The translations under genes and the position numbers were made by a program. DNA of 63,528 bases, counting the filler. It is 16 parts of 16 records of this genome, joined end to end, with 100 filler letters (N's around TTAATTAATTAA, not from the genome) between each part and the next. Parts side by side here need not be neighbours in the genome. Positions count along the whole stretch, not along the records: positions 12,878 to 16,074 come from SRR9670534_612; 15 more parts are not named here. One strand, given 5' to 3'. Shown piece after piece: positions 537-59,010 of the stretch. Under the pieces are notes generated by a model. The model was not told the origin of the DNA and searched no databases. It saw only the letters and a program-made list of their open reading frames with translations. Each line of letters starts with the position of its first letter. Within the stretch, counting starts at the first letter, position 1.

Positions 537-2925
537 CCAAGTGTTGTCATGGTCACAATGGTGTACCAAAAAGCTGCTGGGATGCTGTAGAACTTGCTGT
601 TGGTGACATTCTTTTCAGCATAGAAGATGATGGTAGCAAATATTACAATTGCCATGCCCATGGAAAAGAGCAGAAATCCCAATTCAGAGGCGCAGCTTTT
701 GAGGGTGTATCCCAAAACCCTTAAGCCCTGACTATGTCGTGAAAACTTGAAGATACGAAAGACTCTGAAAACCCGAAGGGTTACAAAAGCACCACTAACA
801 TCGTCATTATTCTTAATGAAGAGACCAATGTAATACGGTAATATTGCCACTACGTCAATAATGCTCATCACTGATCTGGCAAATTTGCATCTAAAAAATG
901 GTTCATATACTACTATTATTAAATCATATAACATAAATGCATCCTATATAATTCTATTGTGGTGCAGGGCAAATCATTACTGCCAGCGTTCTTTGCATCT
1001 TTTTCAAAATGGAGACTACATAGGGCATATCATGATCACCAGCGTTCCTTGTGTAATTTGTAGGGAAAAAAGTGCTAGTAATTGGGCCGTGTACAATTAA
1101 AAGCATTTCGTCTGCTATTAAAAGAACAATCTCTTATTATAAGTACACATATGTAATTCTAAATTGAACAGTTTATGTTATACTTAATAATAGGGGTAAA
1201 CCGTCTGTGTTTACAATTCCAACAAATGAATGACATTTTTTACCGGCGGAAATGTTTTGGAAATTTTTCCATGGAAAAGTCATTAAATAGTTCCAAAACA
1301 TTTTCTCCGAAAAAATACTAACATTTACTGTTGTTATTTAAGCGACAGTTTGCGGGATATTTTTAATTTTTCTTAGATATTTACGAACTTGCATATGACA
1401 GCAATGTGCCCTGGGAGAAAAGTTTACGTATGATTATCAACAGTATCTTCCAATTATAATAATAAATCCCCGGTTTCCTTTCAATTATACGTGATAACGA
1501 GGAAAATCATCCTAATTAACCATATATAATTGCTATGTAGTAAGGTAAAAATAATGAAGACTTCTGGGCAAAACAGGATTTTACATTGAATTTAAACAAT
1601 CTTATAATTATGGTATAACATACGTAACTATACTTCCTTAATTTAATTTATAACAATATTATCAAAATTTTGCAAAATCTTTAGGCTACCTTTCAATAAT
1701 AACAAAACCAACACTTATGTTTCCTATAGTGAAAAAAGATTGCGGTGAATAAAGAAAGATTTCATGTAACTAATACCATTATTATTAATATCGATCTCTA
1801 CTACTAACATAGATCAATCAATATCATATTATGGCTTTCTTGCATAATCGCCATTTCTATAATAAATTTATATGCAAGTATGCACAACCAAAAGCGTCCA
1901 GTCTAAACGTACATGTACACGGTATAATATTACATAATACGTAAACGCGTAATATAGGTTACCTTTCAGGAGATGAGTACAGCCGTAAACAATATTCCAG
2001 TGTAAAGATTATAACGCAGCCTGTATCGGCACAGAAGAAAGCCGATCGAAATCGTTCTCCCATAGGCCATAAATTGCCATAATTATCATAGCCAACTGGA
2101 ATAGTCTCAACAACGTTAGCCAGGACAGAGATACCAATGAAAAACCCGGTTACATAGTAAAAAACTAAAGCACCTGTGGATGTTTGTGGATTTTCGAAAG
2201 CTCTCCACATTTTTTGCCGAAAGGTATAGGAAGAAATTTTCTCTTTGTCTTCCTCTTCTTCTGGTTTATCGTCCATAACACGTTCATTGTTTTCACGCTT
2301 TCGATCACGATAATCTTCATAACAGCAATCGCCGATGACTTCTGGAATTATACCATAAAAGGACAATTCTTCCTCAAATGCCATGATGCATTCATGTTTC
2401 GGATAGTGGAGTTTACCAGTTCTGAAAAAAGTTGTTCCGTAGGTATTTTCATCATACACACCAACAAAACCAAACTTACCTGTAATAATTGAGTATATGC
2501 CTGAACAAGTCTGGATCTCGATCAAAGAAATATTCTTTGGAACACTCCATGTAAAAGAAGTCCTTCTCTCGAGAGCCAAGTAAAGTTTCGGGATATTTAT
2601 CTAAGGTATTTCGCCAAGTTTCGAATTTTCTACCAGAAACGTTAATGATAACTCTTTCATCCTGGATTCTGTTTCTTGATACATGTGGAGGTGGAGGTGG
2701 TGGTGTCGTTGGTCCCAGTATAGCAGGAAAACTACTGGGAGGACTTCGTTGATAAAGATGATTTTCTTGAATAAGTTGGTTATCTGAAGTAAAGTCATTA
2801 TTATTAGTAGTAGTAGCGGAAGCAGGTTTTTCCACTGGTGATTTGGGTAACTTTCTATTTGACACTGGGATCCAACCAACAGCAGATGCACGTGCAAATG
2901 GTAACCATGCGGCAACACTAGCCAT
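537..2925 (-). CDS. Shal: Voltage-gated K+ channel Kv4/Shal, 3'-partial. Exons 2925-2480, 2421-1963, 890-537
   Basis: N-terminus [19 protein letters not shown]1 domain ([34 protein letters not shown]), S4 [20 protein letters not shown], pore [18 protein letters not shown] junctions keep the frame. The next exon (YGD) was not found in 1-536. Confidence 0.97.
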
Positions 2926-7458: not shown

Positions 7459-9228
7459 ATGTCTCTGAACAGTTATGAAGAACCTGGAGCTTCAAAAAGC
7501 TCCTTTGATAAATATCTGTCAGATCTAGAGTGTTTGAGGAACAATTTGGATTCAACTGAATCAATTGAAACTCTTTGTGATGAATGGAAATTCCGCAACA
7601 AGGAAGATGAGATGCACCATATAATGTGCGGTTTTTTCCAATGCAGAATAGATAAGAAGGATTCAAAGATGCTTCATGTTGATCTATCAAAGGAAGTGGT
7701 TTCAGGATATACATTCTATGATTTCTTTAGTGAATCTGTATATTTTAAAATTATATTACTGATATATTTGTAGTATATTCAAGTTAAGAAAAATATTTCA
7801 ATTAATAAATTATATATAATACACTATACACTATATATACTGTAATACAGTATAATATATTATACTATATTATAATACATTATATTATACTATATTATAA
7901 TACATTATACTATATTATACTATACTATACACAAAATTACATATAATATATAGTATACCATATAATATACTGTATTATACTATTTTAAAAATATATATAA
8001 TATATGATATCATACTATATATAGTATACTATAAATGATTTATAATAAATCATAATGTGATATAAAAGTGAGATGATATTAATAACATCTCAGTTTTAAA
8101 AAGAGTTATTAATAACAAAACTTTAAATATAATTCTGAATACAAATTTCTTTAGGTCCATGAAAGGCTACCCAGTTTTGCCATTCAAATTATCCTGTTTT
8201 TGAAGCCAAAATTTAAAAAGAATCATGGCATGACCTACAGGATATCAAATTTGAGTCATTGCTATGTTTTTGCCAAAGTAGGATTTCAAATTGTGACAAG
8301 TAAATCACAAGTTGTGACAAGTAAATCATTGCAAGAAAATTTGGAGGATACAGCGGCAGCAATTGAGTTTGATGCAAATTTTGCAAGATGTCTAGATGAA
8401 AGTAAGATATCCAAGCCTAAGTCAAATACTATTGAACTTCCATTTAATCTTGCTAATCCTCAAGATGTTCATTCAGTATCCTTGAAGATAAAAGAAGAAA
8501 ATGGGTGTGTTAGGATGAAGTTTTACCATAGACCTGCTAAGGAAATGTATACAAATACTGCAAGATTAGCCATGAAGAATGATGGTGCTGCTGATTATCC
8601 TTTGAAAAGAGACATTGGAATGAATCCTCTTGAAAAATTAAAATGTTCAAAGGTTTGCATTTAATAATAAGAAATCAAATCAGTAGCAAATTCTAAAATA
8701 AAATTAAAAAGTTAAACATTATTTGAAAATTTCAAATTGTAATTGTTGGAGAGTTTTATTTTAAAACAAATTTCAAATCTTAAAATTTTATAATAAATTT
8801 AAAACAGATTTAAAAATTTAAAACAATAGAGTTCAATTAAAAATGTCTTTATAATACTGGGTTTTAGAAAATTAAAGTTCATGTTTACTGTCATCTCTGT
8901 ACACCAATGATTGATGAGAAAATACTACAACACTTCTTAAATACTTTCATTGGCCTTCATCATGATGGTTCTGCAACCTTTGATCATGTTGAGCATTGGA
9001 AGTTGTTCATCAAATTAAAATGTGATACTTTTAGTATGATTAAATTTCTTTTTCATTGGTTCAACCAATGCTGCTCAAGATATGATATGTATTTGCACTC
9101 AGGAAATAGTGTGTTTTATACAAGTTCTTTTACTAACTTGGTTAATCCGTCCTCAAGACAAACCCTGCAAGAAGAACTAGAAGATCATCATGATGAAGAT
9201 GAGCCATTAGGGTGTCTCAAAAAAATTT
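7459..9228 (+). CDS. Uncharacterised spliced protein, 3'-partial. Exons about 7459-7696, 8155-8652, 8868-9228
   Basis: Three open, G+C-richer blocks joined in phase 0 by GT-AG introns; the first donor (GAA|gtggtt) is weak. No family recognised. Confidence 0.7.
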
Positions 9229-9466: not shown

Positions 9467-11334
9467 TCAGTACTTCTCATTTCGGTCAGTGCAACAAATA
9501 TATCCCGCCAAAATCATCACAAAGAGCTAAACAACAATTTGTTCCATTAAATGTTCTAATAACGTCCTAATAAAAATTCTAATAATGTGTAGTTACTAGC
9601 TACTAACATAAATGCAAATGCTAACGACGCTATTATTAATTGCGTCACGCTATTGGTTGGCTGCATATCAAAATTAATTATAATACTTGGCGACATCTAC
9701 TTATTAAACCAAGAAATAATGTCATGAACAAAAATCATGTTCCACTCACTGTACAAATATCCTAGAAGGATATGAATTCCACGAATGAGACGCACATTTG
9801 CATTCAATAGGTAGTACTGTATTATACATTGTAATAGAATACAAAGTAATAGCAAAGTTTATACTTCAAATACGACTACTCCTGCAGCAATTCCACCAAT
9901 TATGGGAGCGTTGTCTTCTACCATCTTTATAATTTTGTTAACACAACCCTAAAGGAATGGTGAATTATATATGAACCATGTAAATTTAAATGATTATAAT
10001 TATAATGCTATTACTAATTTATATATATATATACACCCCGAAAAATAATATATATACCCCGAAAAATAGAATAATTGTTCTATTTGCTTAATTAAGCAAT
10101 ACCGTTTTGAACCCTTCCTTTACGTCGGAGCATGCGTCATCTGTACCTTTTGCGATTTCTTTACCACAGCAAGAGTTAGGATATTTACTTGTCATTGTTC
10201 GGGCCCATTTACTAGCTCCCAAATAATCATCTGGACCTTTCACACCGCAGCATTTAGCTTGGATCTCGAGCGCACTCCAAGATTCATATAGAGCGCGCAT
10301 TTGTTTAAATTCTTCTTTTGTTTGACCTGCTCCTGGATTGTAATATGTGTCATTCATTGCCTTTCCAATGATACCACCCAATTCATCTTTAATTTTGTTC
10401 TTGTACACAAAGGCCAATACAACAATGGCTATTTGGATAATTAAGATTAATCCAACCATCGTTATGTACTGAAACATGGAGATTTAGTTATTATGCCAAA
10501 CTTTATTAATATTATTATAATAATAGCTATCATAACTAATATTATAAAATAACATGGTATATTAACAGATGTCCTACTAATAATAAGTCCAGAAGGCGTC
10601 ATATGTCAGTCAAATGACTTCAATGAGAAAATATTATCATTGCCAATCATTGGATGATTCATTGCATTGATGTGGTATGACATATGCATAAATTTGGACA
10701 TACAATGTAGGCATCCAATAGGCCAATCAACTTATTATCAAAATAAGTTACTTAGTAGTACACCCTAGTACAACTTACAATTAGTACAACTTAGTACAAT
10801 CAGTAGTGACTAAATTATACAATTATACTACAGTAAGTGATTTATAAGTACAGTGCATACACAAGAGTCTTGTGACAAGACAATTGACTTATACTTTGCT
10901 ATTACTTATTTTACTAGAATACATTCCAGGAATTCATAATTTACAATTAATATAAGTGTGACAAACCAAAGAAAGACAGCTTCTGCTCTCAGTAATAGCT
11001 CCACAACATCCAAACACTGCTGCAATAAAGATGAAAACGCCTACAGCTATGGCAGCATAACTGGCATATTCTAAGGTATTAGCAGGAATTTTTACCCTCA
11101 ATTTTGACAGTTCATCAAGGGCATCTTGAACAAATGACAACACATTACTGTCGGTTTTGTAGAAGACTAAGATGACTATACCACCAACTAATACGGCCAG
11201 TCCAGTCAACTATGTGAAACTCAGGGTAATTATGTGATCACTTGTAATAATTTTAATAATTTCAAAATACTTACAATAAAAATGGTATTAAGAACAATTA
11301 AAATGCATTTGGATAATCCTTCACAGCAACCCAT
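9467..11334 (-). CDS. Tetraspanin, complete. Exons 11334-11275, 11209-10967, 10468-10103, 9948-9865, 9526-9467
   Basis: MGCCEGLSKCILIVLNTIFI start, FGCCGAITESRSCL, large loop with CCG, PNSCC and GC, four hydrophobic helices, stop after ..RNEKY. Confidence 0.96.
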
Positions 11335-12430: not shown

Positions 12431-13208
12431 TGATCTCACAAACTATAAAATAGAACTTTATTGCACCTATTGTTCTATTTATTTTATTTCTAATGTTATT
12501 TATAGAAATTCTAACATTATTAACAGAAGATGTCGTCATTGTATATTATATGATTTGGCGGTAATTAGCATCACCCATCTTTGGAAGGTTATAACATAAG
12601 GACAAAAGAACCTGAGAAGCTGAAAATTGACAGAAAAATCCTTGAAGGGTGAGGGAAAAGTTTTACATACTTGGCTAGATGGCGCCGTTTTTGGTTATTT
12701 TCAACATGATAGATACCATTATTTACATTATTCTTCAATCGATTGTGATCACTAGGGCGGTTCAAAAAATCCAAAAANNNNNNNNNNNNNNNNNNNNNNN
12801 NNNNNNNNNNNNNNNNNNNNNTTAATTAATTAANNNNNNNNNNNNNNNNNNNNNNNNNNNNNNNNNNNNNNNNNNNNATGGTACTGTAAACATTGAAGTA
12901 AAAATTCGAATTTTTTCACAAAAAGTACATATGTGTTTCTGTATATAGCTTGGGAACTAAAAGGGCTACAGCAATGATTTGTAGCTCATTTTGATGATCA
13001 TTGAATTCTCTTTTTTAGAAGCCTAGCAATAGCATGTTATGCAAAACCGTTGTCGAAATATAGTACTGTAAAAATTAGTATAAATTTGGGTGACTCTATA
13101 ACAAATACTGCCATCTTTTTGAAAATAAATCCCTCCAAAATTGTGGACTGTGTTAAAATATAGACATAAGTGTTTACAGAATAATAAATATATATATTTT
13201 AGATTGAA

Positions 13209-16043
13209 ATGGCTAACAGAAATACAATTGTACTGGAGGACCTGTCTTTTTCCAAAGATGAATTGTCACAAATGGGGTTAAGTGAGAAAGAAATAACTTT
13301 TTTGAAGGAAATCAAGGCCAGAGTAAGAAATTATGAATTTCTTTAATAATTGATAAACTTTTGAAAAATGTATGTAAATAATTTTAGGCAAGCATGATAA
13401 AAGAAGAACCTATGGAACATGAAAGTGAAGATCAGGAGGTACAATAAATAAAGATGATAATAGTTTGTATTAAATCTATAATATCTGTAGGATAAAGTAA
13501 GGGAAACATTAAATGAGATGATGGAAGCAATGGAAGTACAGGGTATATTGAATGTAGACGTGTTGGAGGATGAGTGTGTGATGGAGGAGGTTTTTGAAAG
13601 AAAGTTTATTCTTTGTGAAAATTGTGATATTCAGAAGGTACATTTTAATAGATGTCACTATGTAGTACATATTAAAACTATTTTTTATAAAATGGATGTA
13701 TGCTTTTTTGAATATCTCAGGAATGGAAAATGCTATTTGAACAGTTTTAATCTCATTTGAAAGAGTATGAATTTGTCTTTTTAACAAAGAGAACGAAATT
13801 AAATTTGCTTAAGGCATGTCCAAGTTATAATGATGTAAATTTAGGCATAAAAATGTTAATTTTTTTAAAAAAGTACATATATGTTATTATGCATAATTTA
13901 GGAACACAAACCGCTATTTCCACAGATTTAATCTCGTTTAAAAGAGCGGAAAATTTTCTTTTAAATAGAGAAAACGTTGTTAAATTTGCTTAAGGCATTC
14001 CCGAGATATAATGATGTAAATTTAGGCATAAAAATTTTAATTTTTTTAAAAGAAGTAGATATATGTTATTATGCATAACATAGGAATGCGAAATGATATT
14101 TTAATGATTTTAATCCCGTTTAAAAGAGCAGAAATTTATCTCGTCAGCAAAGAAAACGGTATTATATTTGCTTAAGGCATTCCCGAGATATTGTTTTTTA
14201 AATATATGTATAAATATAACTTATATAGATGATTTTAATTAAAATTTGTACTGAATGTATAATTTTAAAAAATGTATATATAATGAATATGTATTTAGAT
14301 TGACAGTTCTTCAGCAAATGCTTTAGCAGTTACTAAGTTGATAATTCCATCAACTTCAAAACCTTTTGAAACACCTTGCAAGCAAAAATTGCCTTCCAGG
14401 GAGGAATCAAAATCTTCCCCTAGTGGTGTAATATTAAGTCCTAAAACACCTTGCAACAAAATATTGCCTTTATGGGAAGGACCCAAATCTTCCTCTTCTG
14501 GTGTTACCCCCTGTAAAAGGACTTTGACATTTGAGGTATGCTTTACATATGTTTTTATTAATAATAATACATATATGTATCAAAAATTTATTATTAGGGC
14601 CCCAGTGAAACCACCCTAGTGAAAACACCAAGAAAAGGTGGTGAATTTGATGAGAAAGCAAAGATGCCAAAAACTCCAAGGAAAGTAGATGGCTGGATGG
14701 GATCTGAGATTATGGAATTGGATAGGCCTGTAAAAATAACTTTAATACTTTACCTTGTTTATTAATAATAATAATTAATGTTTCAAATATAGGGTGACAT
14801 TGAGCTTTTATTTGAAGACTTGGACTTTGAAGATGACCTTCCAAATAAAAGCATTGGTGACATTGATTTCAGTTCAGAGGTAAAGTTATATATATTAAAT
14901 TAAATGAGTAAGAATTTAATTTAATAAATTTTTTAATTTAATAGGTACCACCCCCTGAACTTGGAATTGATGAGAATATCTGGGTATTTTATATTATTAA
15001 TAATAAAGACTATCATATTATAATATACTACACAATAATATAATTATTATATAGTATAGTACAATTATAGTACTATATACAATTATAATATTATTATATA
15101 TTATGGTAAATTATTGTATATTATTGTATATCATTATATATTGTATATTATTCTAATATATGGTGTATTATTATTGTATATTATTATATATCATTATAAA
15201 TTATTATTATATATTTCCTTATGGAGGTTTCTATGTATTTTTGACTTTGTTGTTTTCCATAGATTTTTTATATGGAAATTTCTATATATATTATTGTATA
15301 TTATTATTATATATTATGATATATTATTATTGTATACTATTGTACTTTATTATATATTATTATTGTATATTATTAAATATTATTATTATATAATATGATA
15401 TATTATTATTGTATATTATTGCATACTATCATTATATTTTTATTCAATATTATTATTATCTACATTTTAATTTAGAATGCATACTTAGACTTAGATACCT
15501 TAAGAACAAACCAAAAATGTTGCCTATTCAACAAGGAGCTGAGTAAATTTTTGGAATATTTCTGTAAGGGGCATAAAATCAATGAGGTATGTGCTATTCT
15601 ATTATTAATTGATAAATTTTATAAAGATTATATTAAATATATTATTAAAATGCACAAATATAATTACTATGAAATGTAATTTGAATAAAAATGTATTAAA
15701 ATTTTTATTGGTTATTAATTTTTATAAAATTACTTTTAATATATGCATATTAATTTTTAGGTCATGATTGAATATGCTTTGTTACCATCCACAGCTCATT
15801 TATTGGGCCCCAGAACAAAAGTGAAGGAACCAAATGGGCAAAAACACCCATTAAATATTTTCCTGCTTATTTGCCAAGAGTCCTCAACAGGCAAGAGTGA
15901 GGTTTTGAAGAGGGTGGTTGATGAAATCTTTGAGTTGGTAGGACTTTCAGAAACAGTGATAAGTAGTTTCACCACATCTGGCTTGCAAGATGCACTTTGC
16001 AGTACACCTCATCAGGTTCTGGCCAAAGCAGATGAGTTTGAAT
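13209..16043 (+). CDS. Spliced gene: acidic, S/T-P-rich N-terminus plus DUF3987/YfjI-like P-loop NTPase, 3'-partial. Exons 13209-13322, 13388-13438, 13491-13637, 14299-14535, 14598-14729, 14793-14879, 14945-14983, 15476-15586, 15761-16043
   Basis: Eight GT-AG introns give one open frame. The last exon has PLNIFLLICQESSTGKSEVLK (Walker A variant), SFTTSGLQDAL and VLAKADEF (Walker B), the motif order I recognise from DUF3987. Confidence 0.75.
13745..14190. repeat. Intronic tandem repeat, period about 181 bp, about 2.5 copies
   Basis: (a)atttgcttaaggcat recurs at about 13801, 13982 and 14164 with conserved flanks. Confidence 0.9.
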
Positions 16044-17855
16044 GTATAATTATTAAATTATATTGTTAATATAANNNNNNNNNNNNNNNNNNNNNNNNNN
16101 NNNNNNNNNNNNNNNNNNTTAATTAATTAANNNNNNNNNNNNNNNNNNNNNNNNNNNNNNNNNNNNNNNNNNNNAATTAAGCATGCTTATTAGCAATGGT
16201 ATTGTAATAATTCCTGGCTTATTAACTGCCATCTCATATTCGCAAAGATTAGTTTACATTAGCTATGTCAAATCTTCATTTTCATTTTAATTGCAATTTT
16301 CCGTTCAAATTATCATTATTGTTAATAATAATAAGATGATAAGATGAGGCATCAGAAACAAGCTAGCATAAATTACTTTATTAGTATAATGCATTAATCT
16401 TCATCAATAAGAGTAATACATTATATACAATTATGAATATTATTATCAACAATTATGAATATTATTATGAATTAATTATTAATAATAATACATAATAACT
16501 CTTACAAATGATATGTAACTTATTTTTCAAATTATTTCCATTATGTTGTAGAAATATTAGTAACTCTGGTTAGTTATCTCATTATAACATTTATTTCAGT
16601 TTTATTATTAATTAATAACTGTTATTAACTGTGACAGAGTTAGTTTAATTAAAAATTCGTTATTATAATAACAAGCCAAATTCTAGCAATCAACTGATCA
16701 TTTTCAAATTTCAAATTTAGTAAGTTATTCAAATTTAATAAGTTATTATTATAATAATAATAATGTATTGGTTTGCACCTTAAATTTATTAAAATATTTA
16801 CTTGCATAATAGGCATAATTATGCAATGCGAGCATGTGACAACACGGAGCAACAAGTTTAGTAGTGGAATCCTTATCTTGGGTATTATTATGAAAGAAGG
16901 GCTTAAGGGGTTGGATAGGGTAGTGAAGTAATTGGGCATGAAATTATTGGGTATGTACAACCCAGCCTCTCTAAGCTACAGGCTATGAAGATGTTATCAT
17001 TTTGAACTATATCATGAATTAATCTAGCGCTGGCCTGATGTTTCTTCTCTCATAATCCTTACAAATTGGCAGCTTCTTTTAGAGATTTTAGCACTAGTTA
17101 ACCCCCTTTTCACTTAATTTGGATAGGTAGAAAATTGTTATCATAGATTATCATCCATCGGATGATCCACATTGTACATGTGCTTATTATTAATGATATA
17201 ATTGTATAGTAGGAGCACACATGTTCACTTCAGCTTCAAATGGATCTGGTGCTGCACCATTTTACTAATAGGTATCTATATTTGCCCTGGCAATAAATAT
17301 ACACAAGGGCACGTGGCTACTTACTAATTTTTAATAAGTTTTGCCTTGATGATAATAATTATAATTCATTTAAATGAAATCGATAGGAATTATTGAACAG
17401 AAGGTGTTAGATTACCCATTATTGTTAGATGGGAACTGGGCGGATCTAACACATGTCCCACACTCACTCATTCTGCCATAATCTTTGCTTTGCCACTATA
17501 TAGTCAGTATATGGCACTTTTGCCTTTACTAGCACTTTGTTTTGCCATTTGAGCCGTGCTGCTGCAGCCTTCCATAATAAGATTCCACTACAACCAAGGT
17601 AGGTACGTTAGCTGGCTGAGCTCAGAAACCAAATCGTAGGTTGGTTTCTATTACTACCCAACCGTCTACTTTTTCCTCTGCTTGCGTTTACTAAGCCTGT
17701 CATTTTTCGTTAAATGATACTAGCCTAATATCATCTAGTTTCGTTTGCATTGATATATAAATCTCTTGTTCTCTGGTGCTGAATATCGCTTGCTCGCGTT
17801 TATTATATGTATTAGTATACTTTACAAAGATTTTGTATTGTATTTCTTGCTTGCC

Positions 17856-26845: not shown

Positions 26846-27440
26846 TATTTTTTACTTTGATATTTTTTGTTATAATATAGTTTTTTGAATTATTATTTGT
26901 CTTCTTATTAGATATAAATACTATTGGCAATAAAATTAACATAATCTAAATTTTTATTTACATACATTATATTATTTATATAATTAATAAGTATAGCAGT
27001 TAATATTTTTATATATGTATTTAGATTTTTATTTTTTAATATTTTATAGATATTTTACTTATACATACATGTATTTAATTTTTTATTTATTAGCTATTTG
27101 TGGTCTTTTTTATTTATACATACCATAATACTCCATAAAGAGGTCATCTTTGCTAAGTACCTTATTCACCTACAGAGAAGCTGAAGTCCAAATACTGGGT
27201 AAATCAAGACAAAAAGTTTTACTTCACACACGTATTCTTTTATTCTCATACTTACTGTTGTTATTAATAATTACTTTTTGTAGGTACCTAATTTGTACTA
27301 TGGTACTGTACTTTAAAGATAGGTAGATTTTATCTACTGTNNNNNNNNNNNNNNNNNNNNNNNNNNNNNNNNNNNNNNNNNNNNTTAATTAATTAANNNN
27401 NNNNNNNNNNNNNNNNNNNNNNNNNNNNNNNNNNNNNNNN

Positions 27441-28944
27441 CCATAACTATGCTTTCTACTCGAGCTTTTAGATCTTGATAACCTTGAATTGCTGTTCTCG
27501 AAGGTACGGCTACAACTACCAAGACAACCTCACTTGCCAACTTTTCGCATTTTAGCAGAAACCTTTTATAGGCTAGCAATCGCTCTGGCAATCCTTTCGT
27601 GTAGTCCAATCTGTCAACACTGAGAATCATTCGCCTAACACTTGTAATTTTCTTTACAAACTGTAATTCACTTTCGAATTCGGAATCAGAAATAATTTCG
27701 CAAATCTTTGTGACATCAATGCTAATTGGAAAAGCACCTATGGATACACCATGTGAAGGCATTTCAATCAGGTTAATCTCTGATTCAATGCCAAGCAAAT
27801 GAAGTAAACAACTTCTGAAATGTCGATTGTACGTATGCGTATGAAATCCAACCACATTAGCACCCAAAAGGCCTTCAAGCAACATTTCTCGATATGGTAG
27901 ACACCTGAACATTTCAGAAGATGGAAAAGGTGTGTGCAAAAAGAAACCAATTTCGGCATTTAAGCAGTTACTTCTGATCATTTTTGGAGTTAACATCAAC
28001 TGATAGTCGTGAATCCATATTAGGGGTTTCGTTCCATCATTGTTATCGTTTTCAAATTCTACAAGGTAAGTTACAATAGAATGACTGAATTACAACTTTC
28101 AATTATGTCACAGTAATTAGTAGTAGAATGTACAGTGTACAATGTACAGTATTTCATTACCATTTTGAATTACATCCTGAACGGCATCTGCAAAAATTTG
28201 ATTAACTTCCCAATACTTATGCCAATCTTTTTCAGAATATTCAATGTATGTTGGTAGATAATGAAAGGTAGGCCAAATAACTTTATTACTGAATCCAAAA
28301 TAATAGCCATTCAATTGTTCCTCTGATAAAAAAATTGGTACTGCATTATAAGCTTTGCGCAGTTCTAAAAAGACAACTACACACATGTATGTATGAAATT
28401 CATACTATGAATGGCAACTTGTCACTGGCTAGCTACTATGGCATACACTGTACTACAATATACACAGCATTACAATATACACAATATTATAATAATATTG
28501 TACTATATAATTGTTGACGGGATTGACTACATAATAATAATAATAATATTGTACCACATTGTAATATTGTACTATATTGTACTATACACAATATTATAAT
28601 GATATTGCATTACTAGTACAATTATTATAATATTGTGTATATACATAGGTAGTAAGTATTGAAAAAGCATAGTTACCCTTTGTGATATCTGAAGCAGAAA
28701 ATATTGACAAATCTACTTGACCAGGCCAACCAACAAACAAAAATTCATATTTGTCATCCAATGCACTTAAGGCAGTTGCCAAACCACCTGGTGAAGCATT
28801 AAACGAAAAGGTTTTATCTTCGACTCTAGTCACTATATTCAACGGAAGACGGTTCGCAACAACAATTATACGCTGTCTTTTTATCGGTTTGCTATCCGTT
28901 GTACTTTCCTCACTCTTTAATAATAAATCATCTGCTGGAAGCAT
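27441..28944 (-). CDS. TPS1: Trehalose-6-phosphate synthase (GT20), 3'-partial. Exons 28944-28677, 28364-28161, 28058-27441
   Basis: IIVVANRLP, SPGGLATAL, FVGWPG, YYFGFSNKVIWPTFHY, IWIHDYQLML, IGFFLHTPFPSSEMFRCLP, GFHT, SVDRLDYTKG, VAVPSR. Confidence 0.97.
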
Positions 28945-29221
28945 TTTCTAAATTATTTCAATAATGGCTATTATTAATAATAATAACAATGACGATGATC
29001 AGATTAAAAATTCAGAGATCAATACTAACTTTCTAAGTCTTGTACATTAGGCCTACTAGTAGTACTTCCACTTGAACGTTAGTTTTTATAGAGAGCCTTG
29101 CAACTCACAACTTATTAAATCTTAGCCCCTAATGTACTGTATTACAATATTAGAAATCGCAATATGTACATTGTACATATTAGACTAATATATCCAGCAA
29201 TGCATAGCTCCATATTTCACT

Positions 29222-34984: not shown

Positions 34985-37900
34985 AGAAATCCATTGAGGT
35001 AGTCCCTTATCAAAAGAAGTTATTTTATTTTCAATCAAATATTTGATTAAAGCACATAGGTTTGGCATGCATTCATGTGAGTTCAGTTGGTCAAGTTCCA
35101 TTAAAATTCCACCTTCGTTAACATCAGAAAAAGACCCTATAGCATTGGTCGCAACACCTTCGCCTTTACTGCTTTTTGATGTTTCTTCTAGAAAATCCTC
35201 TTTGTCCGCAAAAGATTGCGAAACTACTTTCGACTGACTAAACAAAGTGCTGCTTTGAACAGTTTGTGATGCATACTGCCCAAACTGTCTCAACGGTTTA
35301 TAAATTCTAGAAAAATCTTGCTGCAAACCCGAAAATTTTGCTTGATAATATCCTCTAGGCAAATAATTTTCAAAATCAACTGCAAAAGAATATAATTTAT
35401 TGAAATCAATTAAATTTTTCCAAAATCCATCTTGGGATAAACCACCAGCATCGGAAAAAACAAAAGTATTGAAAAGTTTCTCTTGATTGCACACTTTCAT
35501 GAGAATACTGATCAAGCAATTGAATGCTGCACAATGGTAAAGTCTACCAGCATCGCCAGTCAACTTTCCATCATGAAAATTTGTTTCATGCCGTGATAAA
35601 CTTCAAAATGAGAAGGGTTACTTTGTTTAATGTTAATAACATTATGGAGTAGTTAGTTTTATTGTATACATTAATTCATAATAATGTACATATAGCAACT
35701 AACCTAAGAAGCTTTTTAGTCATATCCTTGCCATCCTTAGACTGAACATTACCATTAAAAGCTTGATTAATCAAGGAGTTAGTACTATGAACTTCATCAA
35801 TTGACAACTTATCATAAAGAAATTGAAGTAGCTTAAAACCAAGCGTTTTTGAAACTATCTGTTTGTCCAGTTCTGCCTGAACCTAACATTGTATATTCAT
35901 TAAATTAGCGTTTGACAGAAACAGAGCTCAAATCTTACCAAAGAAAATGAGGAGGCTTCAGGATCAACCAAGCTTACAAGGTTTCTGATATGTATTTTGA
36001 AGAAACTTATTAAAACAGAAGCCGAACATTTTGACAAACAAATTAAAAATATCTTAGTAAAAATATTTTCACGAAACACTTCTTGATGTTGGTTGCCAAA
36101 ACACATATCATACATATAATTTAATATGTCGAGTTGGTCTTCTAATCTTGTTCTAAAGAAATTAGTAGGATTAATTGCATATTTGTCATACAATTTTACC
36201 TTTTTGCAACCCTTGTGGCATATGTCTCAAAATGATCTTTTAACGAACTTTCATAAGCATGAACTTTTTCTCTGCAAACCACACCGATAACTATTTTCAG
36301 GATTTCCAAGTTTCCAGTATAACTAAGAGTGACCATCAACTAAAAGAGTAATCATTAACAGAGAAGATTTTTCGCATGTCATGCTATGGAATGACACCTT
36401 ATCTAACGCAGAACTGTATGCCATATATTCCGTCGAACCTTTTGACAATTCATCACTTCGCAAAGGAAAGTGTCTTTTTACAACAGCCTTGATTGCGTTA
36501 CTAAAATGAGAGAAATTCTCGTAAGCAATATCGACATCTTTTTGCAACATTTTGTGTTTATTAAAAAACTTACATTATGGTTATGTTATGGGACATCTTA
36601 GCTCCTGGTAATGGCATCAAGAAAAAGAAACATAGATCAAGAGCTGGAATCTAGATAAATAACAAACTTGGATTGACCAAACAAAAATGCAGCATGTCAA
36701 AATAAAATAAATTTAGCTTACAAACTAATATAATAAGCTCGCTCACCTTTTGCATGAGAGACAATTCAAGAGATTCCAAAACTGCACAATATTTTGACAC
36801 TATGAATGCTAGGATATCGGCACGCTTCTGTTCGGTAACAATCTAACAAGATTGAAAAAAAATTGAGGAGACTTCTACTTGCATATATACAAATATTTAT
36901 AATTTATTTTATGCATACATTATATTTCAAAAAGGATACCTTTGCATTTATTAACAACACCTTTGATAGCAATGAAATAAAATTTTGATCAGCCTGAGAA
37001 TCTTTTCCATAATAGTCATAATACACCTCAATAATGAACCTGTTCACTTTTTCTCCAAACTCCAACCTCATACTACGATCATGATATAAGCAGTCTAATA
37101 TTCCATTTTGAAGAATTTCTAGTAAGTTATGAATGGAACCACTGGAAAAATATTTCTCAAAAAGTAGAGATATGGCAATTTGAGAGTAGCGAGTAAAATA
37201 AGCTGAAACTTCTTTGCTGAATCCACTGTAAAAGTCTACATTCTCTGATATTGCTTGAACTAGTGTAGTCAACACATGGTAGTGTTGATGAGAGCAGTTG
37301 AAGCAAAATAACAAGCAACCAGCAGAAAGTTCTTTTAGTGTATGGTCAGAGTAATATTTTGTCTAAAAGTACACTAAATGACAACTACAATTATAATAAT
37401 TGTATACGCTAAACGCAACAAATAATGAACCTCTGATTTAAGCTGCTCAATTATAGACGAAATAATGTGCTTTTGCTCAGAATCATTTAGAAGATTGTCT
37501 ACCAGTGACTTGATGCTAAAAAACTGAGTCCATCCACTAAAAAACTGCATTATGCTTTTAGGGTCATCAGAAGTATCACTGTGAAGTGATAATTTTTCAA
37601 GTAAGATAAAATGAAGATTTTGTAGTTTAATCTTTCTAAAACAGTAAAGACAACATTAAATTCTTTCAGTTAAAATACTTAAATATTTACTACTAATATA
37701 TTAAAATAGCATACCTTTCACTAAAAAATTTCTGAAGGAATGTGAAAAAATCCTTGAACAGATTATCCTGCTTTACAATAGACTTTAGAAACACTTCAAT
37801 CTAAATTAATCGAACTAGGTATTATTCTAGGAATATGTGCTATAAAAAATATAGGTCATAAACATTATAAGCAAATATTTAACTTCAAACTTAGGTACGA

Positions 37901-44995: not shown

Positions 44996-45647
44996 GGTAT
45001 GTACAGTATGTAGATAGGGGTACCCTACTAGCGTACGGTACGCTGCGTACCTATTCTACAACAATGTTGTAGCAGCATACATGTTTTTATGTATTTGCAT
45101 AACGAACAAAGTTTTACAGGTTTGATAATATGCATAATATGCATGTGCATGTAGTAGCCTATGAAATTCCTATGAAATGGTATGTAGTAGTATNNNNNNN
45201 NNNNNNNNNNNNNNNNNNNNNNNNNNNNNNNNNNNNNTTAATTAATTAANNNNNNNNNNNNNNNNNNNNNNNNNNNNNNNNNNNNNNNNNNNNAATAATG
45301 CCTGGTTCCTCCCTTAATGATTTCATGGATGGGTAATGCTACTGCTACCGTGGGGCATAGTTTCTAGTATTGCCCATTAATTATACACTTAAGAGGGGGG
45401 AGCTTGTTTGATCGGCTTTCAAAACAGGCTGAGGAAATGATTGTGTGAATTAAACATGTGTTTGATACACTTAGTAAAATATCATTCGATCAATCAACCA
45501 GAATTAATGAACAAACTATCATCATCTTAGCCCCGATTAGATGCCTAATGGGTAAAGTGCAACCCCAACCCAGTCCTTGCTCACTTAACTTATTACATAT
45601 GAATTATTTTGTATAATTTGGCTAAATAGTTAAATTAATCAACTTAC

Positions 45648-45963
45648 AATCCTTATTCATTTTCACTGCAAGACATTTTTGAAATCTGCAACTTTGACAC
45701 TGATTTCTTCTTGCCACATCGATGACACATCTGCCATTTTCTTTACAGACATAACCAATATTTCGTCTGATTGATCTCTTGAAGAATCCTCTACATCCAT
45801 CACAGCTTAAAACACCATAGTGTTTGCCAGAAGCTTTGTCACCACAGACTCTGCAAATCATCTTTGATTTTGGTATCTTTCCAGCAGCACTTTCCACAGA
45901 ACTTGGTGAAACTGATGATTGTGATGACTCGGTCGATTCTTGGTTTCCCATCAATTGGTACAT
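45648..45963 (-). CDS. NR2E6: Nuclear receptor NR2E group, best fit NR2E6 (PNR-like); first coding exon with the whole DNA-binding domain
   Basis: [63 protein letters not shown]-box CDGCRG; donor T|gtaagt at 45647; TATAAAA on the minus strand near 46167-46174. Confidence 0.8.
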
Positions 45964-48767
45964 TGTTTTGGAAGAAGCTGGATTATTGATAAACTCTGCA
46001 AGGCAAAAACGTGACTTTTTCGTTAAACACGCAAACAAGTAAATTTCAGGTGAGAAAGAGAAGGTGCTCTTTGATCTGCAGCTTTGGCTGCGACAGGATG
46101 GTATTTTGTTGTAAGTACTGTGAGAACTACAGAATAGAGTTTAGTGAATGGGGTTTTCATTGTTCATTTTTATACCTGAGTGTGTTATGATCACAAGGTG
46201 AAAACAATAAAGGACTGCGATTATCTTGGTGGGTAGTGGAAGGGGTTTCCTGCTGACAACCCTGAAGCTACTCCTACCCATTTGTATAGCTGGCTATACA
46301 AATTTAATCAAATTTCAGGCTTAATTTGGCCCAATATGCAGCGAAGCCAGTCAACACCCCTTCCCATTTTAGGTAGTGTCCAGGTATCCGTTGGCTAGTT
46401 CTACTGGTGTGATCTGGGTAATTTTGCTTAGTTCACACCCCACCACCGAGCTGATGAATGTTTATTAACAATACATTCTATCAATATATGCCAATGTGGT
46501 CAGGGCCAGATGATAAAACCAATGGGAGATCATGGAGTAATGTGTTATTATGTCTAACACCTTGTTGCATGATTACAATCAAATTTTGCACAATATGATG
46601 CGGATTTAACACCCCTTGGGGCTGGTTTTATTCTCTGCTCCTCTTAATTATATACAATCGCCCAGTTATTTGTAATAGCTCTACCAGATAAGGAAAGACT
46701 AGAAAATGATACTACATTATCATGCTATCGTTTATTATCGGCTAATAGATCTATCATCAGATTGATTCATGATCTTACCTTGAAGTTGTGATGGAAAGTT
46801 CCCATGCCCTAGCCCAGGGTTATTTAACAATACCCAATTAGTAATGCATAGCTTACCTTGATTAGCAATTTGACGAAAGTCTGAGGGTGTTGAAGAGGGT
46901 GCTGTATTGACTTGTGCTTCCATGGAAAAAGCTAAATGTGACGAACGATAAGGCGATGATAGAGATAATCACTAGAAAGTGAGCTAACAATATTTTGATA
47001 AAGTATTAACTCTTAGCTTAGCCACTTACTTAACATGTTTATATAGCCAGAATTCTCTTTATTATTCACAATGATTGGTAGCAGCCAATCAATTTATAGA
47101 ACAGAGGTGCAATTAAGGAGCCACGTAGGAGGAACTAAAGCAAACAAGCTTACTTACAAATGCATTTAATAAATAGTGTGAACAGGAAATAGTAGTAGTA
47201 CTATATTGTAGTAACAGTATCACAGTACTGTATCCACAAATTATGCAATTCATTTTGTATTTATTACTAAGAAATATAATGTCTATTAAATTTACAATTA
47301 TGTAATCTACTTATTATTATAATGATTATAATATAATCATAGTTATATAAAACTACATACTTCTTATTTATTAATTATTAATAATTATCTTTGTTATTTA
47401 TAAATTATTACAGATATGATTCATATTCATTTTCAATAATATATTTATGTATATTATTTACTATATTGTCATATGTCTATCAATAGTTCTAGTATTATAT
47501 ATTTAAATATAGTATAATAATAGGTACGCTATATAATGTTAAATATAGTATATATAATAAAATATTAATACAATTATATTTAGTATACATAATTATAGTA
47601 TTATATTTGATATATATATCAACATTATTAGAAATATTGCATAAAATTACATAAAAATATCACTTACTACAATATATTTTTTTCAACATAATAACTATTA
47701 ATTAACATTAATAATTTAATAAATTTACTTTAATTAATTTAATTATAGCTTATCTATAGACAATAACAATATTATTTAATTATAGTTTGTCTATAATTAA
47801 TAATATTCAGTATTATTATTATTAATACCCAATAAATGTTATTAATTTTATAGCAAGAGAAGTTATATTTTCAGTTAGCCTACTATGTTGTTCTACCCTA
47901 CATAATAACTTATTGTTATTAAAATTAAAGATACAGCATAGTCTACTATTATAGGAACAAATTTTTCAAGTATGAAACATTTGCTTCAAATTAAACGGTA
48001 AAACCAACCTGATATTATGATAAACCCTTAATAACAGCTGTTTTTATGAAAGATACCTGCTACCTGGCTCTTTATGATGAACAATAATGCAAGAAAGAAC
48101 TGCAACAATCGTTTTCTATAGGAGATTACTACATGCTGTACGCACCAGCGTCCATGTACATAGTACGTATACTATCATTACCGCCTTTGAGCGAGCATTG
48201 CATGTGAAATGCTCAGGTGTTGCACCACACGACTGCTTGTCATTATCATCAACTTAATCCACTCTTTGGACAAGCAGGTAACAATGCATTCATTATTTTG
48301 CTTGTTGAAATTTCATCCAGGCTACCTAGCCAGCTAACTTACTCTTTACAGATCAAACAATAATTGTGGACGTATCACTGAAAAGCGTCATCAGGTATGA
48401 AGTGTCAATTAATGTTGAACTAATGAATGCAATGTCATACTTTCATAATTGAGTTCAACATGCTACACTGTATTATAACTATTGCTCTTATGGCATCATG
48501 TTATTATTATTATTATTAATAATAATNNNNNNNNNNNNNNNNNNNNNNNNNNNNNNNNNNNNNNNNNNNNTTAATTAATTAANNNNNNNNNNNNNNNNNN
48601 NNNNNNNNNNNNNNNNNNNNNNNNNNCAATAATTGACGATACTGTCTCAGAAAAACATTTTTGTGACAGGTACATATACATAATAATATTGGTGTACATA
48701 TACATAATGCTATTTATGTACATATGCATAATACTATCTGTACAATACTAAAATTAACAGTAATTTA

Positions 48768-53004: not shown

Positions 53005-56000
53005 ATGATGAGTGGTTAGATCCTTTGCTATTCACAGAAGACATTATTATAAAATTTAGTTGTATTTTGTTGGTTTAGATTACAGCATATATGGTGCCTT
53101 GGATGATTTTATGGATGACGATGAAGATAATGAATTTGGTGGATCTTCTGGAGTCGATGAAGATGATCCAAATGATGGGGAGATGGCTGTTGATGAACAC
53201 TTAGAAAAGCATGGGCTTTTATCATCGTTGGATAAGTTTGAAAAGTTATCCTTGAGTGACAATGTATTTAATCGGTAAGCACCTGTAACGTAAATGAGGA
53301 CTGTTAATTACAAATGTAGGTATGTAGTAAATGTAGTAGTACTACAGTAGTACAATGTATCGTTTTCGAGTTGTTTCTTCAAGATGGCGGGATTCATTTA
53401 CAATGATACAGACTCATTTCTGTTGCATTATATATATATGTAATATGTATGCCAAGATGGGGGCATTGAGCCACGACTTATTTTTTATTTTTTGTATTTA
53501 GCCAAATTGTTGCCAGAACATTAAGCGACACGATCAAAGTCCTCTTTGAAGAAGAAGGAAAAATTGAGAATAAACACAACGATTTCATTCGTCTTTTTAA
53601 TTCTGCAGTACATCTGTCAACTGATTCCGGTAGGTTTTCTTAATGAAGTACAGTATCAGTTGACGTATGCTTTATACATTATCATAAATTCATTATGATA
53701 GAACCCACTGTTCGCGGAGAATTAATGGAACAGATTCCGCAGTCAATTCTTATATGTGGACAACTGAAGAAGTATAGTCCCTTCAACACTGCTACAAAAA
53801 AGTATTTCCTACCAATTATTGTTCGGTATTTGACGGATACGAACAATCAAGTTCGGAAAACGAGCCAGTCAGGCTTGCTCCTTCTCATGGAACAATCATT
53901 GATTAATCTAGGTATGAATGAAATTTTAGTGCCGGGAGCGAAAAGGCAATTAACCTTCTTACATAGGGTGCTTGCGTCATACGCTCTTCATGTGACGTAC
54001 ACGTGATTTTATTAACTCGTTTTTACGAACGACTACTTGAAGGAAAGAGATGTCGCATACCATTTTAACCTGAAATTGAAACTTTAGATGATGTCGAAGA
54101 TCAAGTTGTTCCAGTCCTTCTAGATTTAACCAATTCGGATGCAATGGATGAATATCGTGTTGAATCGTTGCAATTATTATGTAAAATTGTGCCATATTTG
54201 TCTAGTAAAGCTGTGATAGATTCTTTTTTGGAAACTTTTCTCGAGGTTTGCGGTGATTCTGGCTTTCATATTCGAAAGGTTCGTTCTTTATTGAAAAATG
54301 TCTAAAACATTTAATTCAACAAATTTAAATATAGGTATGTGCAGCCAACATTGGAGAAGCAGCAGATTTAGTGGGTCCTGAAAATACCGACCTCAAATTA
54401 CTGGAAAAGTTCTTTTTGTTATGTCGGGACTCAGTTTGGGGTGTTCGAAAAGCCTGTGCTGAATCTTTTAATTCAATTGCGAAACACATTCACAATTTTC
54501 AGGCTAAAAGGGAACGAGTAACACCAACTTTTATTGGTTTATTATCCGATCAATCCAGATGGGTTCGAATGGCTGCTTATCAAACATTGGGACCTTTTAT
54601 AAGTACCTTTCATAACCCAGAATCCTTGCCCGTGTATGCCAACTCTAAGGATGGAAAACTTATATGCAAATATAAAAAGTAAGTCAAAAGAGATGTCGCC
54701 AATAAATGATGTTGTAAATTCTGTTCTTTTTTAGCAAAGAAAAAGCCATTAAAGCATTATTTAAATGCATCTATCAAAAAACGCTGGATTTCAATAGCAT
54801 CGTTGCCATGGAAACCGCTTCTCTTTTTGACGTAAACGCTGCCGGCAAGACAACTGCTCATATCATGGAATCTAATGATTTCCTGTCTTGGAAACCCCTA
54901 ATGCCAAAAGATGATGCTGTTCCAGCGGAGACATGCAGCGATACTTCTGCTGCTTTGTCAGAAAAACCCTCAGTTAGTCGTTCTATGGAGGAGGAAGAAG
55001 AAGAAGAAGAAGACAAGCAACCGCCAGACAACTTGACGACGGTTTCGGTGCTTATGGAGAACCATCAGGACGAACAACCTAATACATCCGGGGGAGCATC
55101 TAGGTAATTTTCACTTACTTGTTGTTCTAAGAACATTATTATGTATATTTAACTTATTTAGATCAATATCAGACATATGCCTAAACAGTGAATATGAAAG
55201 ATTATTAGGATATTATGAGGAATTAGAGGCTTGTGATGAATCATCCTTAATCCCCAATTTAAACTTAATTGATCAAGGGCATATGAAACGAAAAGGTGCT
55301 GAACGAGATGTTTCCTCAGGTGGATCACCTCTAAATATTCCTGATGAACTTCTGGACTACTACACAAGCATGACAACTCCAAAGGTGGCTCAAACCGTGG
55401 ACACTGAAGTTGCAAAACATTGTGCTTTTTCTTTTCCTGCAGTTGCTTTAACGTTGGGAAGAGATCATTGGGGAGAAATAAGAGAACTTTATTTGGCTCT
55501 TGTTGAAGATTTACAGGTATGACGTCACATTGCAAATTTTAACAAATTGATAAATTTTTAAAATTTAGTACAAAGTAAGAAGAACGCTGGCTTTTTCTTT
55601 GCATGAATTAGCAGTTATTCTTGGACCAAAAATAACTCATACAGACCTTGTGCCAGTTTTTAATATATTTTTGAAAGATTTAGATGAAGTGCGGATCGGT
55701 GTCTTGAAGCATCTTTACGATTTTTTGAGAGTAAGCCTTTAAAATTGAAATTTATTTTTGAATAGCTGTCAATTTTAGCTGCTGAAGCCAAAAATACGTT
55801 CTTGCTATTTATCCCAATTGAATCATTTTTTAAGCACTGAAAATGAAAGGTTTTGGAGATTCAGATTGGAACTTGCAAAGTAGGTTCTAATTAATATTTT
55901 ACAAAAATATAGAATATTTTAAATTTCTAATTGAAATTTTTGAAATTTTGAAAAATTTGAAGTAACTAAAATTTGAAATTGAAATTTGGAAATTTTAAAA

Positions 56001-56685
56001 TTAAGCAATGCATATACATGTTTATTTGAAATTTTTTAATTTAAAATTTTGAAAATGTGAAAATTTAAAGATTTTTAATTATTTAGACAAATGACGCAAC
56101 TAATTCCATTATTTTCTTGTGAAGAAATCAATGATTTTTTGGTAATCTTGGGGATGCAACTTGCTCAGGACAAAGTTGCCGTTATCAGACAAAAATCATT
56201 GACAATGCTTACTCTAGTGATCAAAAAATTTGCCAGCACCAAGAATTGTGAAGAAATCTTGCTCCAACTAATTACAGACCTTATCAATACCTTTGCAAAG
56301 AATTCTGTTTGGTTGCACAGACAAAGTTTTTGCACCCTTTGTTATAAGTTATTGGTCAAAAATGATGGTTTTCTTGGTAAATTGGGTGTTTTGGAACCCT
56401 TGTTAGCACTTGGAAAAGATCCTGTTCCAAATGTTAGAATTTTCCTTGCTAAGATGTTGGTGGAGAAGAAGGCCTGTTTTGATGGTAATGGTTTTTTTTA
56501 CATATTTAAAATTTATATTAAATTTTTGAATAATTTCAGAATCAAATATTGAAATGATCAATGAAACCCTAAAATCTTTACAAACTGATACAGATATGGA
56601 TGTGAAATATTTTGCTTTGCATGAGGTGAAGAAAGGTGATACCAAAGAAGTGATTGATGATGATGATGAAGAACTTAGTGATTAA
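53005..56685 (+). CDS. PPP4R1: Protein phosphatase 4 regulatory subunit 1 (HEAT repeats), apparently complete, about 12 exons
   Basis: SDNVFNRQIVAR, DSEPTVRGELMEQIP, LPIIVRYLTDTNNQVRKTSQ, FHIRKVCAAN, DSVWGVRKACAE, DQSRWVRMAAYQTLGPFISTF, VDTEVAKHCAFSFPAVALTLGR, DLDEVRIGVLKHLYDFL, DPVPNVR. Micro first exon ATGATGAGTG|gt. Confidence 0.96.
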
Positions 56686-57948
56686 TCTAATTAGCATGAC
56701 AGAATTATTTTCCATATTAATTTATGTATATATTTATTAATAAGCACATAGGATTGCATTTTATGAAGTTACAAGATATATTTAATGTTTTTATATTAAT
56801 TAGCAATTAAGATTCTGCTTAGAATAGATATGTATAACTGTTTGATGATATAATTATGGATATGAAAGTAATATTTTTATTATTTACACTATATAGTGTT
56901 ATAATGTTTAATAATCTTATGTTGTTCAGCACTTGTGTGCAAAGCCACAATTGTGCTGAGCATTATTAATAATATGAAATGTTAATATTCACATAGATAT
57001 GTATGAGATGCAGTTAACACCATGATAATATGATAATTTATGCATTTTAACTCATTATATATCTGCATTAACAAGTCATGGCCAAAATATTAATTAGGCT
57101 TTGATGTTAGCATGCATTCATTCCATAGAATTGCTTTATTGGCTATTTTGAATTAATGAATGATCATTAATTTGACCTGGCCACATTAATTTACCACCTT
57201 TGTTCTAGTAAAATTCATTTTACATTGAGATGTTAATTTGGCCAGAACTACCTACTTTAATATTAATATACTATAATAAACTATATTAAGTCTTTATATA
57301 TAGTATAATACTATTAATATACTATAAATACTATATATACTGTTAATATACTATATATAATAATTATAGTATTTATAATTGTATATCATAATATTAAATA
57401 TATATAATATTAATGTACTATATAAATAATTGTATATAATATACTATAAAAATAAGTATATATAATACTAATATACCATATATTGATTATATGCAGTTGT
57501 AATTGTGCATGTTATTAACAATGAAGTTGATATGGCCATGTCTTTTGTCATTGACATGAATATCTCTTTGCATGATCATTATTATTAATATAATATAGAA
57601 ATAACTATTGACTTTGTGATTAAGACTGCTTGCTAGTCTGGACATTATTATTATCATTTCATCATAACAAAATATTGTACCATAGTTTTTCTTTGCAATA
57701 TTTGTCAAATTAGATGAAATAATGTGATGATATATTATAATAATAACACCATGTACCATACCATATCATTAGTAATTGTTCCATTTTATCTTTCCATGTT
57801 TGGTACAATATATGCAACAATATTCAACTCCTTTTTTCTGAATAGTAAACTCATATTATAAACCTTAGATTTTATTAAGATTTGAATTGTGTTTCATTAT
57901 GTGATTTGTTATAAGTAGCAGTTTCTTTATTCCTATATTTTTTCAGAC

Positions 57949-58750: not shown

Positions 58751-59010
58751 GTTATTAATGACTTAAATTTAATTTTATTTTATTTTAAACTTGACTTATT
58801 TTATTTTAAACTTAAATTAATTTATTTTANNNNNNNNNNNNNNNNNNNNNNNNNNNNNNNNNNNNNNNNNNNNTTAATTAATTAANNNNNNNNNNNNNNN
58901 NNNNNNNNNNNNNNNNNNNNNNNNNNNNNCATACCTGTTTTTGGCGTGCATGTATATAATAATATTACTCTATATACATAATATAATATTTAATGATGAA
59001 AAATGCTTAC

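Follow-up and report, generated by a model that had tools for sequence, protein, structure and literature searches.

An intron-rich gene on one contig of an animal assembly

We studied a 63,528-base window (the whole stretch of DNA that was analysed) made of 16 contigs of 2.1-7.4 kb each, with a GC content of 20-33%. One contig (12878-16074; 3197 bp; 26% GC) carries the 5' part of an intron-rich gene whose last readable exon resembles the start of a P-loop ATPase of the DUF3987/YfjI kind. The linkers between contigs read N44-TTAATTAATTAA-N44 (for example, at 12778-12877 and 16075-16174), and because the contigs are separate and linker-joined, adjacency across a linker has no genomic meaning. 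The assembly is from an animal, as judged from the fragments of a nuclear receptor, a tetraspanin, a glycosyltransferase, and DNA-PKcs on other contigs.

A first-pass annotation of this DNA had proposed nine exons in a single frame, and we agree: with GT-AG borders throughout, the nine exons splice into one open frame of 400 full codons, and every peptide that had been quoted from it is present (TPCKQK, SPKTPCNK, TPCKR, TPRK twice, NIFLLICQESSTGKS, TTSGLQDAL, and LAKADEF). The exons are as follows.

13209-13322, plus strand: exon 1, 38 codons, starting at the ATG at 13209; donor GTAAGA
13388-13438, plus strand: exon 2, 17 codons, acidic
13491-13637, plus strand: exon 3, 49 codons, acidic; holds the sole exonic CpG, at 13559
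14299-14535, plus strand: exon 4, 79 codons, with many S, T, P, and K residues and an internal duplication
14598-14729, plus strand: exon 5, 44 codons, with two TPRK sites
14793-14879, plus strand: exon 6, 29 codons, acidic
14945-14983, plus strand: exon 7, 13 codons
15476-15586, plus strand: exon 8, 37 codons
15761-16043, plus strand: exon 9, 94 codons plus one base, the putative start of a DUF3987/YfjI-like P-loop ATPase domain; phase-1 donor T/GTATAA

The first ATG is preceded by an in-frame TAG at 13200-13202. All nine donors are GTA and all eight acceptors are TAG; the eight internal junctions are in phase 0, and the final donor, that of exon 9, is in phase 1. The introns are 65, 52, 661, 62, 63, 65, 492, and 174 bp long. 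The contig stops 31 bases past exon 9, so the gene is cut off, and the readable part of the ATPase domain is its first 94 residues, or roughly a quarter.

Base composition changes at the proposed borders. GC content is 0.32-0.46 in the exons and 0.09-0.24 in the introns, and each exon exceeds each intron. We also scored codon usage, after training on 9144 bases from other open reading frames (ORFs) of the window. The proposed frame ranks first of six in 8 of the 9 exons, and in each of the nine it has a positive score while the two remaining sense frames have negative ones. The steps in composition at the exon borders are stronger evidence for the gene model than codon usage is. At the level of the sequence the exon structure is well established.

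Exon 9 resembles the start of a DUF3987 domain

Two nucleotide-binding motifs can be picked out in exon 9:

15875-15898, plus strand: Walker A motif QESSTGKS, exon-9 residues 39-46, paired with the SGERKS block of YfjI relatives in an ungapped alignment
16016-16036, plus strand: candidate Walker B motif VLAKADE, exon-9 residues 86-92, with D91 and E92 at 16031-16036

The best Pfam match to exon 9 is DUF3987 (PF13148), with 19 bits and an expectation value (E) of 8.7e-4; residues 10-52 align to positions 14-56 of the 364 in the profile. The second-best family is MCM (PF00493), with 13 bits and E = 0.055, which is short of its cut-off of 23.3 bits. In PHROGs, exon 9 matches a "DNA helicase" family (E = 2.3e-4) and a "DNA primase" family (E = 7.6e-3, residues 24-86, with no large gap). 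The top feature matches in the Protein Atlas are DUF3987-bearing phage clusters (score 0.95, with 194 of 256 features shared), which account for 13 of the 30 matches. If PF13148 is left out, then the best score is 0.85 (137 features), and the matches are helicase-type P-loops of plasmids and phages (MTBMA_p00010 and VapE-like). So the earlier assignment of the ATPase to DUF3987/YfjI stands as the best profile match, ahead of MCM, while the match itself is below the gathering score and confined to the Walker A block. A best match to an ordinary eukaryotic family would have told against that annotation, and there is no such match in the Pfam, PHROGs, or Protein Atlas lists.

For a more sensitive comparison, we built a custom hidden Markov model (HMM) from 21 YfjI relatives (24-100% identity), which came from 33 viral-contig loci found via E. 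coli YfjI; two relatives with internal stops, near-duplicates, and short matches were dropped. Exon 9 scores 15.3 bits against this model. The alignment is gapless across residues 2-58; it starts at the helix that precedes the first strand and takes in ES..GKS and the helix after that. None of 1000 shuffled sequences reached this score (the maximum was 4.4). Among the 1288 ORFs of at least 25 codons on both strands of the window, exon 9 is the sole match with E < 1 (E = 4.8e-4), and the search brought up no further YfjI-like segment on any of the contigs. Alignment of exon 9 to the 21 aligned relatives with hhalign gave a probability of 84.5% (E = 6.9e-6, 54 columns). We considered exon 8 as a continuation of the N-terminal helix of YfjI and rejected it, as adding it raised the score of the custom HMM from 15.3 to just 15.5 bits.

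Downstream of the Walker A region, the segment TTSGLQDALCSTPHQVLAKADE pairs without gaps with residues 162-183 of YfjI. When residues 59-94 are placed on the custom HMM, the best local position is the Walker B block (profile positions 151-175), though without significance. We estimate a chance of about three in four that exon 9 encodes a DUF3987-like domain. Because there is a plausible Walker A motif (QESSTGKS) and a candidate Walker B motif (ADE), the likeliest activity of the protein would be the ATP-driven unwinding of DNA, or translocation along it, by a ring-shaped oligomer.

In 6 of the 21 YfjI relatives, all from viral contigs (L021, L022, L026, L029, L032, and L035), the reading frame extends 1059-1449 bases (353-483 residues) upstream of the matched region. 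Extensions of this kind would fit the primase-type fusions in the literature.

A long tail with proline-directed kinase motifs

The tail upstream of exon 9 is 306 residues long. We compared exons 1, 3, 4, 5, 6, and 8, three antisense ORFs, and one ORF in the intron repeat to Pfam and found nothing at E < 0.08; exons 2 and 7, which encode fewer than 20 residues each, were left out of the scan. There is no primase domain in the seven exons that were scanned (1, 3, 4, 5, 6, 8, and 9). The tail had been described as about 300 acidic residues. This is right for its length and for its ends, which have net charges of -16 and -12, but the middle (residues 105-227), which bears the S/T-P sites, has a net charge of +6.

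Four sites of the form S/T-P-x-K/R lie in this basic middle, within residues 129-212:

14371-14382 and 14506-14517, plus strand: TPCK sites in exon 4
14625-14636 and 14673-14684, plus strand: TPRK sites in exon 5

Shuffled tails contain 0.35 such sites on average, and just 2 of 20,000 shuffles reach four (P = 1e-4), but the count is overstated because exon 4 is internally duplicated (14369-14429 versus 14444-14504, 79%) and the TPCK sites, which lie in this duplication, are not independent. Minimal S/T-P sites number seven, as compared to 2.8 in shuffles (P = 0.012). The RxL-like motifs KILPL and RTLTF adjoin the S/T-P-x-K/R sites. The tail thus holds a cluster of proline-directed kinase motifs. 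A disordered tail of this kind could serve in regulation or targeting and might be phosphorylated by such kinases; that cyclin-dependent kinases (CDKs) regulate it is possible, and is our guess from the motifs.

How firmly exon 9 can be assigned

We propose that the contig carries the 5' half of a real nuclear gene with many introns, from an animal whose genome is AT-rich. The gene would encode a tail without recognizable domains followed by the start of a P-loop ATPase of the DUF3987/YfjI kind. We give this reading about even odds.

Many of our results weigh against it. The DUF3987 score is below Pfam's gathering cut-off (19 versus 27 bits), and the domain is visible for roughly a quarter of its length before the contig ends at 16074. 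The significant match is confined to about 55 residues around Walker A: the Walker B block scores -0.7 bits, a value equalled or bettered by 25 of 1000 shuffles. Also, the DE follows the Walker A lysine at a distance of 46 residues, as compared to 83-108 residues in all 21 YfjI relatives, so that if this is a DUF3987 domain, then it is one without an insert of about 60 residues. Against a narrow profile of 11 enterobacterial YfjI sequences, hhalign gave a probability of just 21%. A single-sequence AlphaFold2 model of exon 9 was unusable (mean predicted local distance difference test score, or pLDDT, of 44.6).

Nor did pairwise searches with exon 9 find convincing homologues. A word-index search of 5.8 billion proteins, in the "longer" and "near" length classes, returned none. 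Exhaustive searching of 1.84 billion representatives with phmmer yielded one match, a three-HMG-box protein (P0001) aligned through the word PNAPKKP..LLFCQ, which we judged to be spurious. Scans of viral and of metagenome contigs gave 65 and 571 pattern matches, none of which was confirmed; tblastn against 50,697 phage records hit four, all with E of at least 3; and NCBIfam and PADLOC each returned no family. Similarly, nothing among the sequences in PDB was below E = 0.8. A word-index search with YfjI itself found only close enterobacterial relatives.

The gene model has its own weak points. No orthologue turned up to support the junctions, and the codon-usage score separates coding from non-coding ORFs poorly: of the ten best-scoring ORFs on the contig, six carry proposed exons, and the top score belongs to an ORF on the other strand.

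14298-14579, minus strand: antisense ORF over exon 4, 94 codons, score 29.8 (versus 22.5 for the sense ORF), internally repeated, no Pfam match

Given these results, exon 9 might instead belong to a divergent P-loop nucleoside triphosphatase of some other eukaryotic family, perhaps one that has not been modelled, and its likeness to DUF3987 might be the generic likeness of sequences around a Walker A motif. The narrow extent of the significant alignment, the sub-threshold Pfam score, the unusual Walker A-to-B spacing with its non-significant Walker B block, and the lack of any bacterial or phage protein in pairwise searches are all what one would expect in this case. On the other hand, the gapless alignment begins about 30 residues before the P-loop strand and thus goes beyond what a Walker A motif by itself would give, and no other Pfam family does better than E = 0.055. 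Furthermore, the neighbours in the Protein Atlas are DUF3987 clusters and, without that family, P-loops of mobile-element helicases at much lower scores, and residues 59-94 find their best place on the correct Walker B block. We consider another P-loop family to be unlikely, though it is the alternative that we take most seriously.

CpG depletion, repeats, and the mobile-element alternative

The exons had been described as almost free of CpG, and they are: we observed 1 CpG (at 13559) versus 44.0 expected. The introns are not depleted (11 observed versus 11.3 expected). CpG content is bimodal across the coding ORFs of the window, with some containing 0-2 CpG where 12-25 are expected and others near expectation.

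57919-58758, plus strand: CpG-depleted ORF, 0 CpG versus 25 expected
8155-8664, plus strand: CpG-depleted ORF, 1 CpG versus 14.4 expected
36904-37362 (minus strand) and 56079-56552 (plus strand): CpG-depleted ORFs, 2 CpG each versus about 12 expected (11.8 and 12.2)
1959-2600 (minus strand), 27397-28089 (minus strand), and 53647-54006 (plus strand): ORFs without CpG depletion, near expectation

The potassium-channel, trehalose-synthase, and tetraspanin ORFs are among those without depletion. In many invertebrates, CpG content that is bimodal, with exons alone having lost CpG, is known to mark broadly expressed genes whose bodies are methylated in the germline. The bimodality of the ORFs in this window fits germline methylation of the bodies of a subset of genes.

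The contig also contains repeats. As previously described, intron 3 holds a 181-bp repeat:

13719-14191, no strand assigned: tandem repeat with a 181-bp unit, 2.6 copies, 80% matches

The start of the contig had been called repeat-like; there is repeat sequence there, but it amounts to one partial copy of the intron-3 repeat (12899-12968, 70 bp, 74%). Intron 7 is almost entirely an imperfect microsatellite of the (TATATTATTA)n type (15066-15457), which yields long open frames of isoleucine, tyrosine, and leucine codons that mimic coding potential.

The intron-3 repeat and the repeat-like contig start, together with the almost CpG-free exons, had been taken to fit the setting of a mobile element. 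Conceivably it is the replication helicase of an intron-containing mobile element or of an endogenous viral element. In favor of this idea, DUF3987 proteins are known as helicases of phages and mobile elements (PMC4889955 and PMC11724360), the intron-3 repeat has a partial copy upstream of the gene, and no orthologue turned up in very large protein collections. However, the near-absence of CpG turns out to be shared by some ordinary ORFs of the window. We found no second copy of the gene within the window, including the other 15 contigs; no further part of a YfjI-like domain on any contig; no terminal inverted repeats on the gene's contig beyond AT-rich low-complexity pairs, with short flanks on either side; and no recombinase, primase, or polymerase on this 3.2-kb contig. 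The coding sequence, 1.2 kb in length, is interrupted by eight introns, and its exons are stripped of CpG as are those ordinary ORFs; both features argue for a long-resident host gene that is transcribed in the germline. We infer that this is such a gene, with a germline-methylated body, rather than part of an active element. Our check covered 3.2 kb of the locus and 63 kb of the genome, and with so tiny a sample the probability of the element is lowered rather than brought to zero; we now think it quite improbable. An origin from a mobile element in the deep past, as suggested by the known range of the family, is still plausible.

Lastly, it is very unlikely that the gene model is wrong in part, such that exon 9 is a separate gene or a decayed fragment and the exons before it are non-coding or part of a different transcript. 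The junctions are read from the genomic sequence, GTA and TAG are frequent in AT-rich DNA, and codon usage fails to separate the exons from ORFs in AT-rich repeats and prefers the antisense strand over exon 4. But nine open segments link in frame via canonical sites; of the eight introns, one has 52 bp and another five have 62-65 bp; GC and CpG content change sharply and exactly at the proposed borders; and in every exon the codon-usage score is above zero for the proposed frame and below zero for the remaining sense frames.

A possible history and why it would matter

If the gene is the DUF3987/YfjI-like ATPase gene that we propose, then the complete protein would, by analogy with its family, form an ATP-driven ring helicase or translocase on DNA. 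The gene may have begun as a phage or mobile-element helicase that was acquired long ago, and later it would have gained introns and a eukaryotic regulatory tail. A bolder version is that this animal lineage carries a domesticated replicative helicase of the DUF3987 family (superfamily 6, MCM-like) that was taken from a phage or mobile element, with introns, a germline-methylated gene body, and a disordered tail of clustered CDK-consensus and RxL-like motifs that places it under the control of cell-cycle kinases. We offer this version tentatively, and think it rather less likely than not. Among the papers listed for DUF3987, YfjI, and PF13148, no title or abstract opening concerns a eukaryotic member.

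The papers cited here treat DUF3987 helicases as belonging to phages, satellites, and bacterial integrative elements. If it is true, then a spliced, long-resident animal copy would clearly exemplify how a metazoan gene set can take in a replication protein from the mobile elements of prokaryotes, and would add a helicase of the MCM-related superfamily beyond the canonical MCM2-9 set. It would also be a tractable model for how such a gene gains introns and a eukaryotic regulatory tail. At present the basis is a 94-residue fragment with similarity at the level of profiles, which makes it a lead.

Other features of the window

Domains of animal type on the other contigs include a nuclear-receptor zf-C4 domain (E = 2.5e-29), a tetraspanin, a glycosyltransferase of family 20, and the CC3 region of DNA-PKcs.

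10088-10483, minus strand: tetraspanin fragment
27397-28947, minus strand: fragment of a family-20 glycosyltransferase of the trehalose-phosphate-synthase type
34985-35602, minus strand: fragment of the DNA-PKcs CC3 region
45622-46140, minus strand: fragment of a nuclear-receptor DNA-binding domain

Rfam gave no matches across the whole window. The contig at 24269-27340, with 20% GC and a CpG observed/expected ratio of 0.1, is the most extreme within the window. The CpG-free ORF at 57919-58758 on the plus strand has 279 codons, has no match in Pfam, and begins with MGNLCAKG, which we take to resemble an N-myristoylation start.

Comparison with known systems

MCM, the second-best Pfam family, matches the same Walker A region of exon 9 and belongs to helicase superfamily 6. 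The N-terminal tails of MCM2 and MCM4 are phosphorylated by CDK and by Dbf4-dependent kinase (DDK). As far as the Pfam scan can tell, the animal gene differs from MCM in having no N-terminal oligonucleotide-binding (OB) or zinc domain before the P-loop.

YfjI, from the CP4-57 prophage of E. coli K-12, is a member of PF13148. Residues 2-58 of exon 9 align without gaps to approximately residues 28-89 of YfjI, and the two have the E-S...K-S P-loop in common. A T-x-x-x-L...L-C...D-E block also aligns without gaps, at YfjI 162-183, but without significance. There is no detectable pairwise similarity between YfjI and exon 9 (BLASTP E = 4.6). The animal gene retains the glycine before the lysine (STGKS, versus SGERKS) and does without the approximately 60 residues between Walker A and Walker B. 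And, unlike YfjI, it is split by introns, has a eukaryote-style tail of 306 residues, and lies in an animal genome.

According to a 2016 survey, DUF3987 is a distant relative of MCM within helicase superfamily 6, has a C-terminal winged helix, and is often fused to primases or encoded beside them; there, DUF3987-type helicases are reported from phages and archaeal viruses and not from eukaryotic viruses (PMC4889955). The other relevant system is AgaPH, a PriCT-DUF3987 helicase from a bacterial element that carries a prokaryotic Argonaute (pAgo), which belongs to the Pfam family that best matches exon 9 (PMC11724360). AgaPH differs from the animal gene in that a PriCT domain lies at its N-terminus and its partner, a primase-polymerase to which it binds, is encoded nearby (PMC11724360), while the scanned N-terminal exons of the animal gene match no Pfam family and its contig shows no neighbouring genes. 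AgaPH is an oligomeric 5'-3' DNA helicase that needs ATP or dATP and both of its Walker motifs, A and B (PMC11724360). So far as that source goes, AgaPH is the only biochemical model for the family to which the animal protein may belong.

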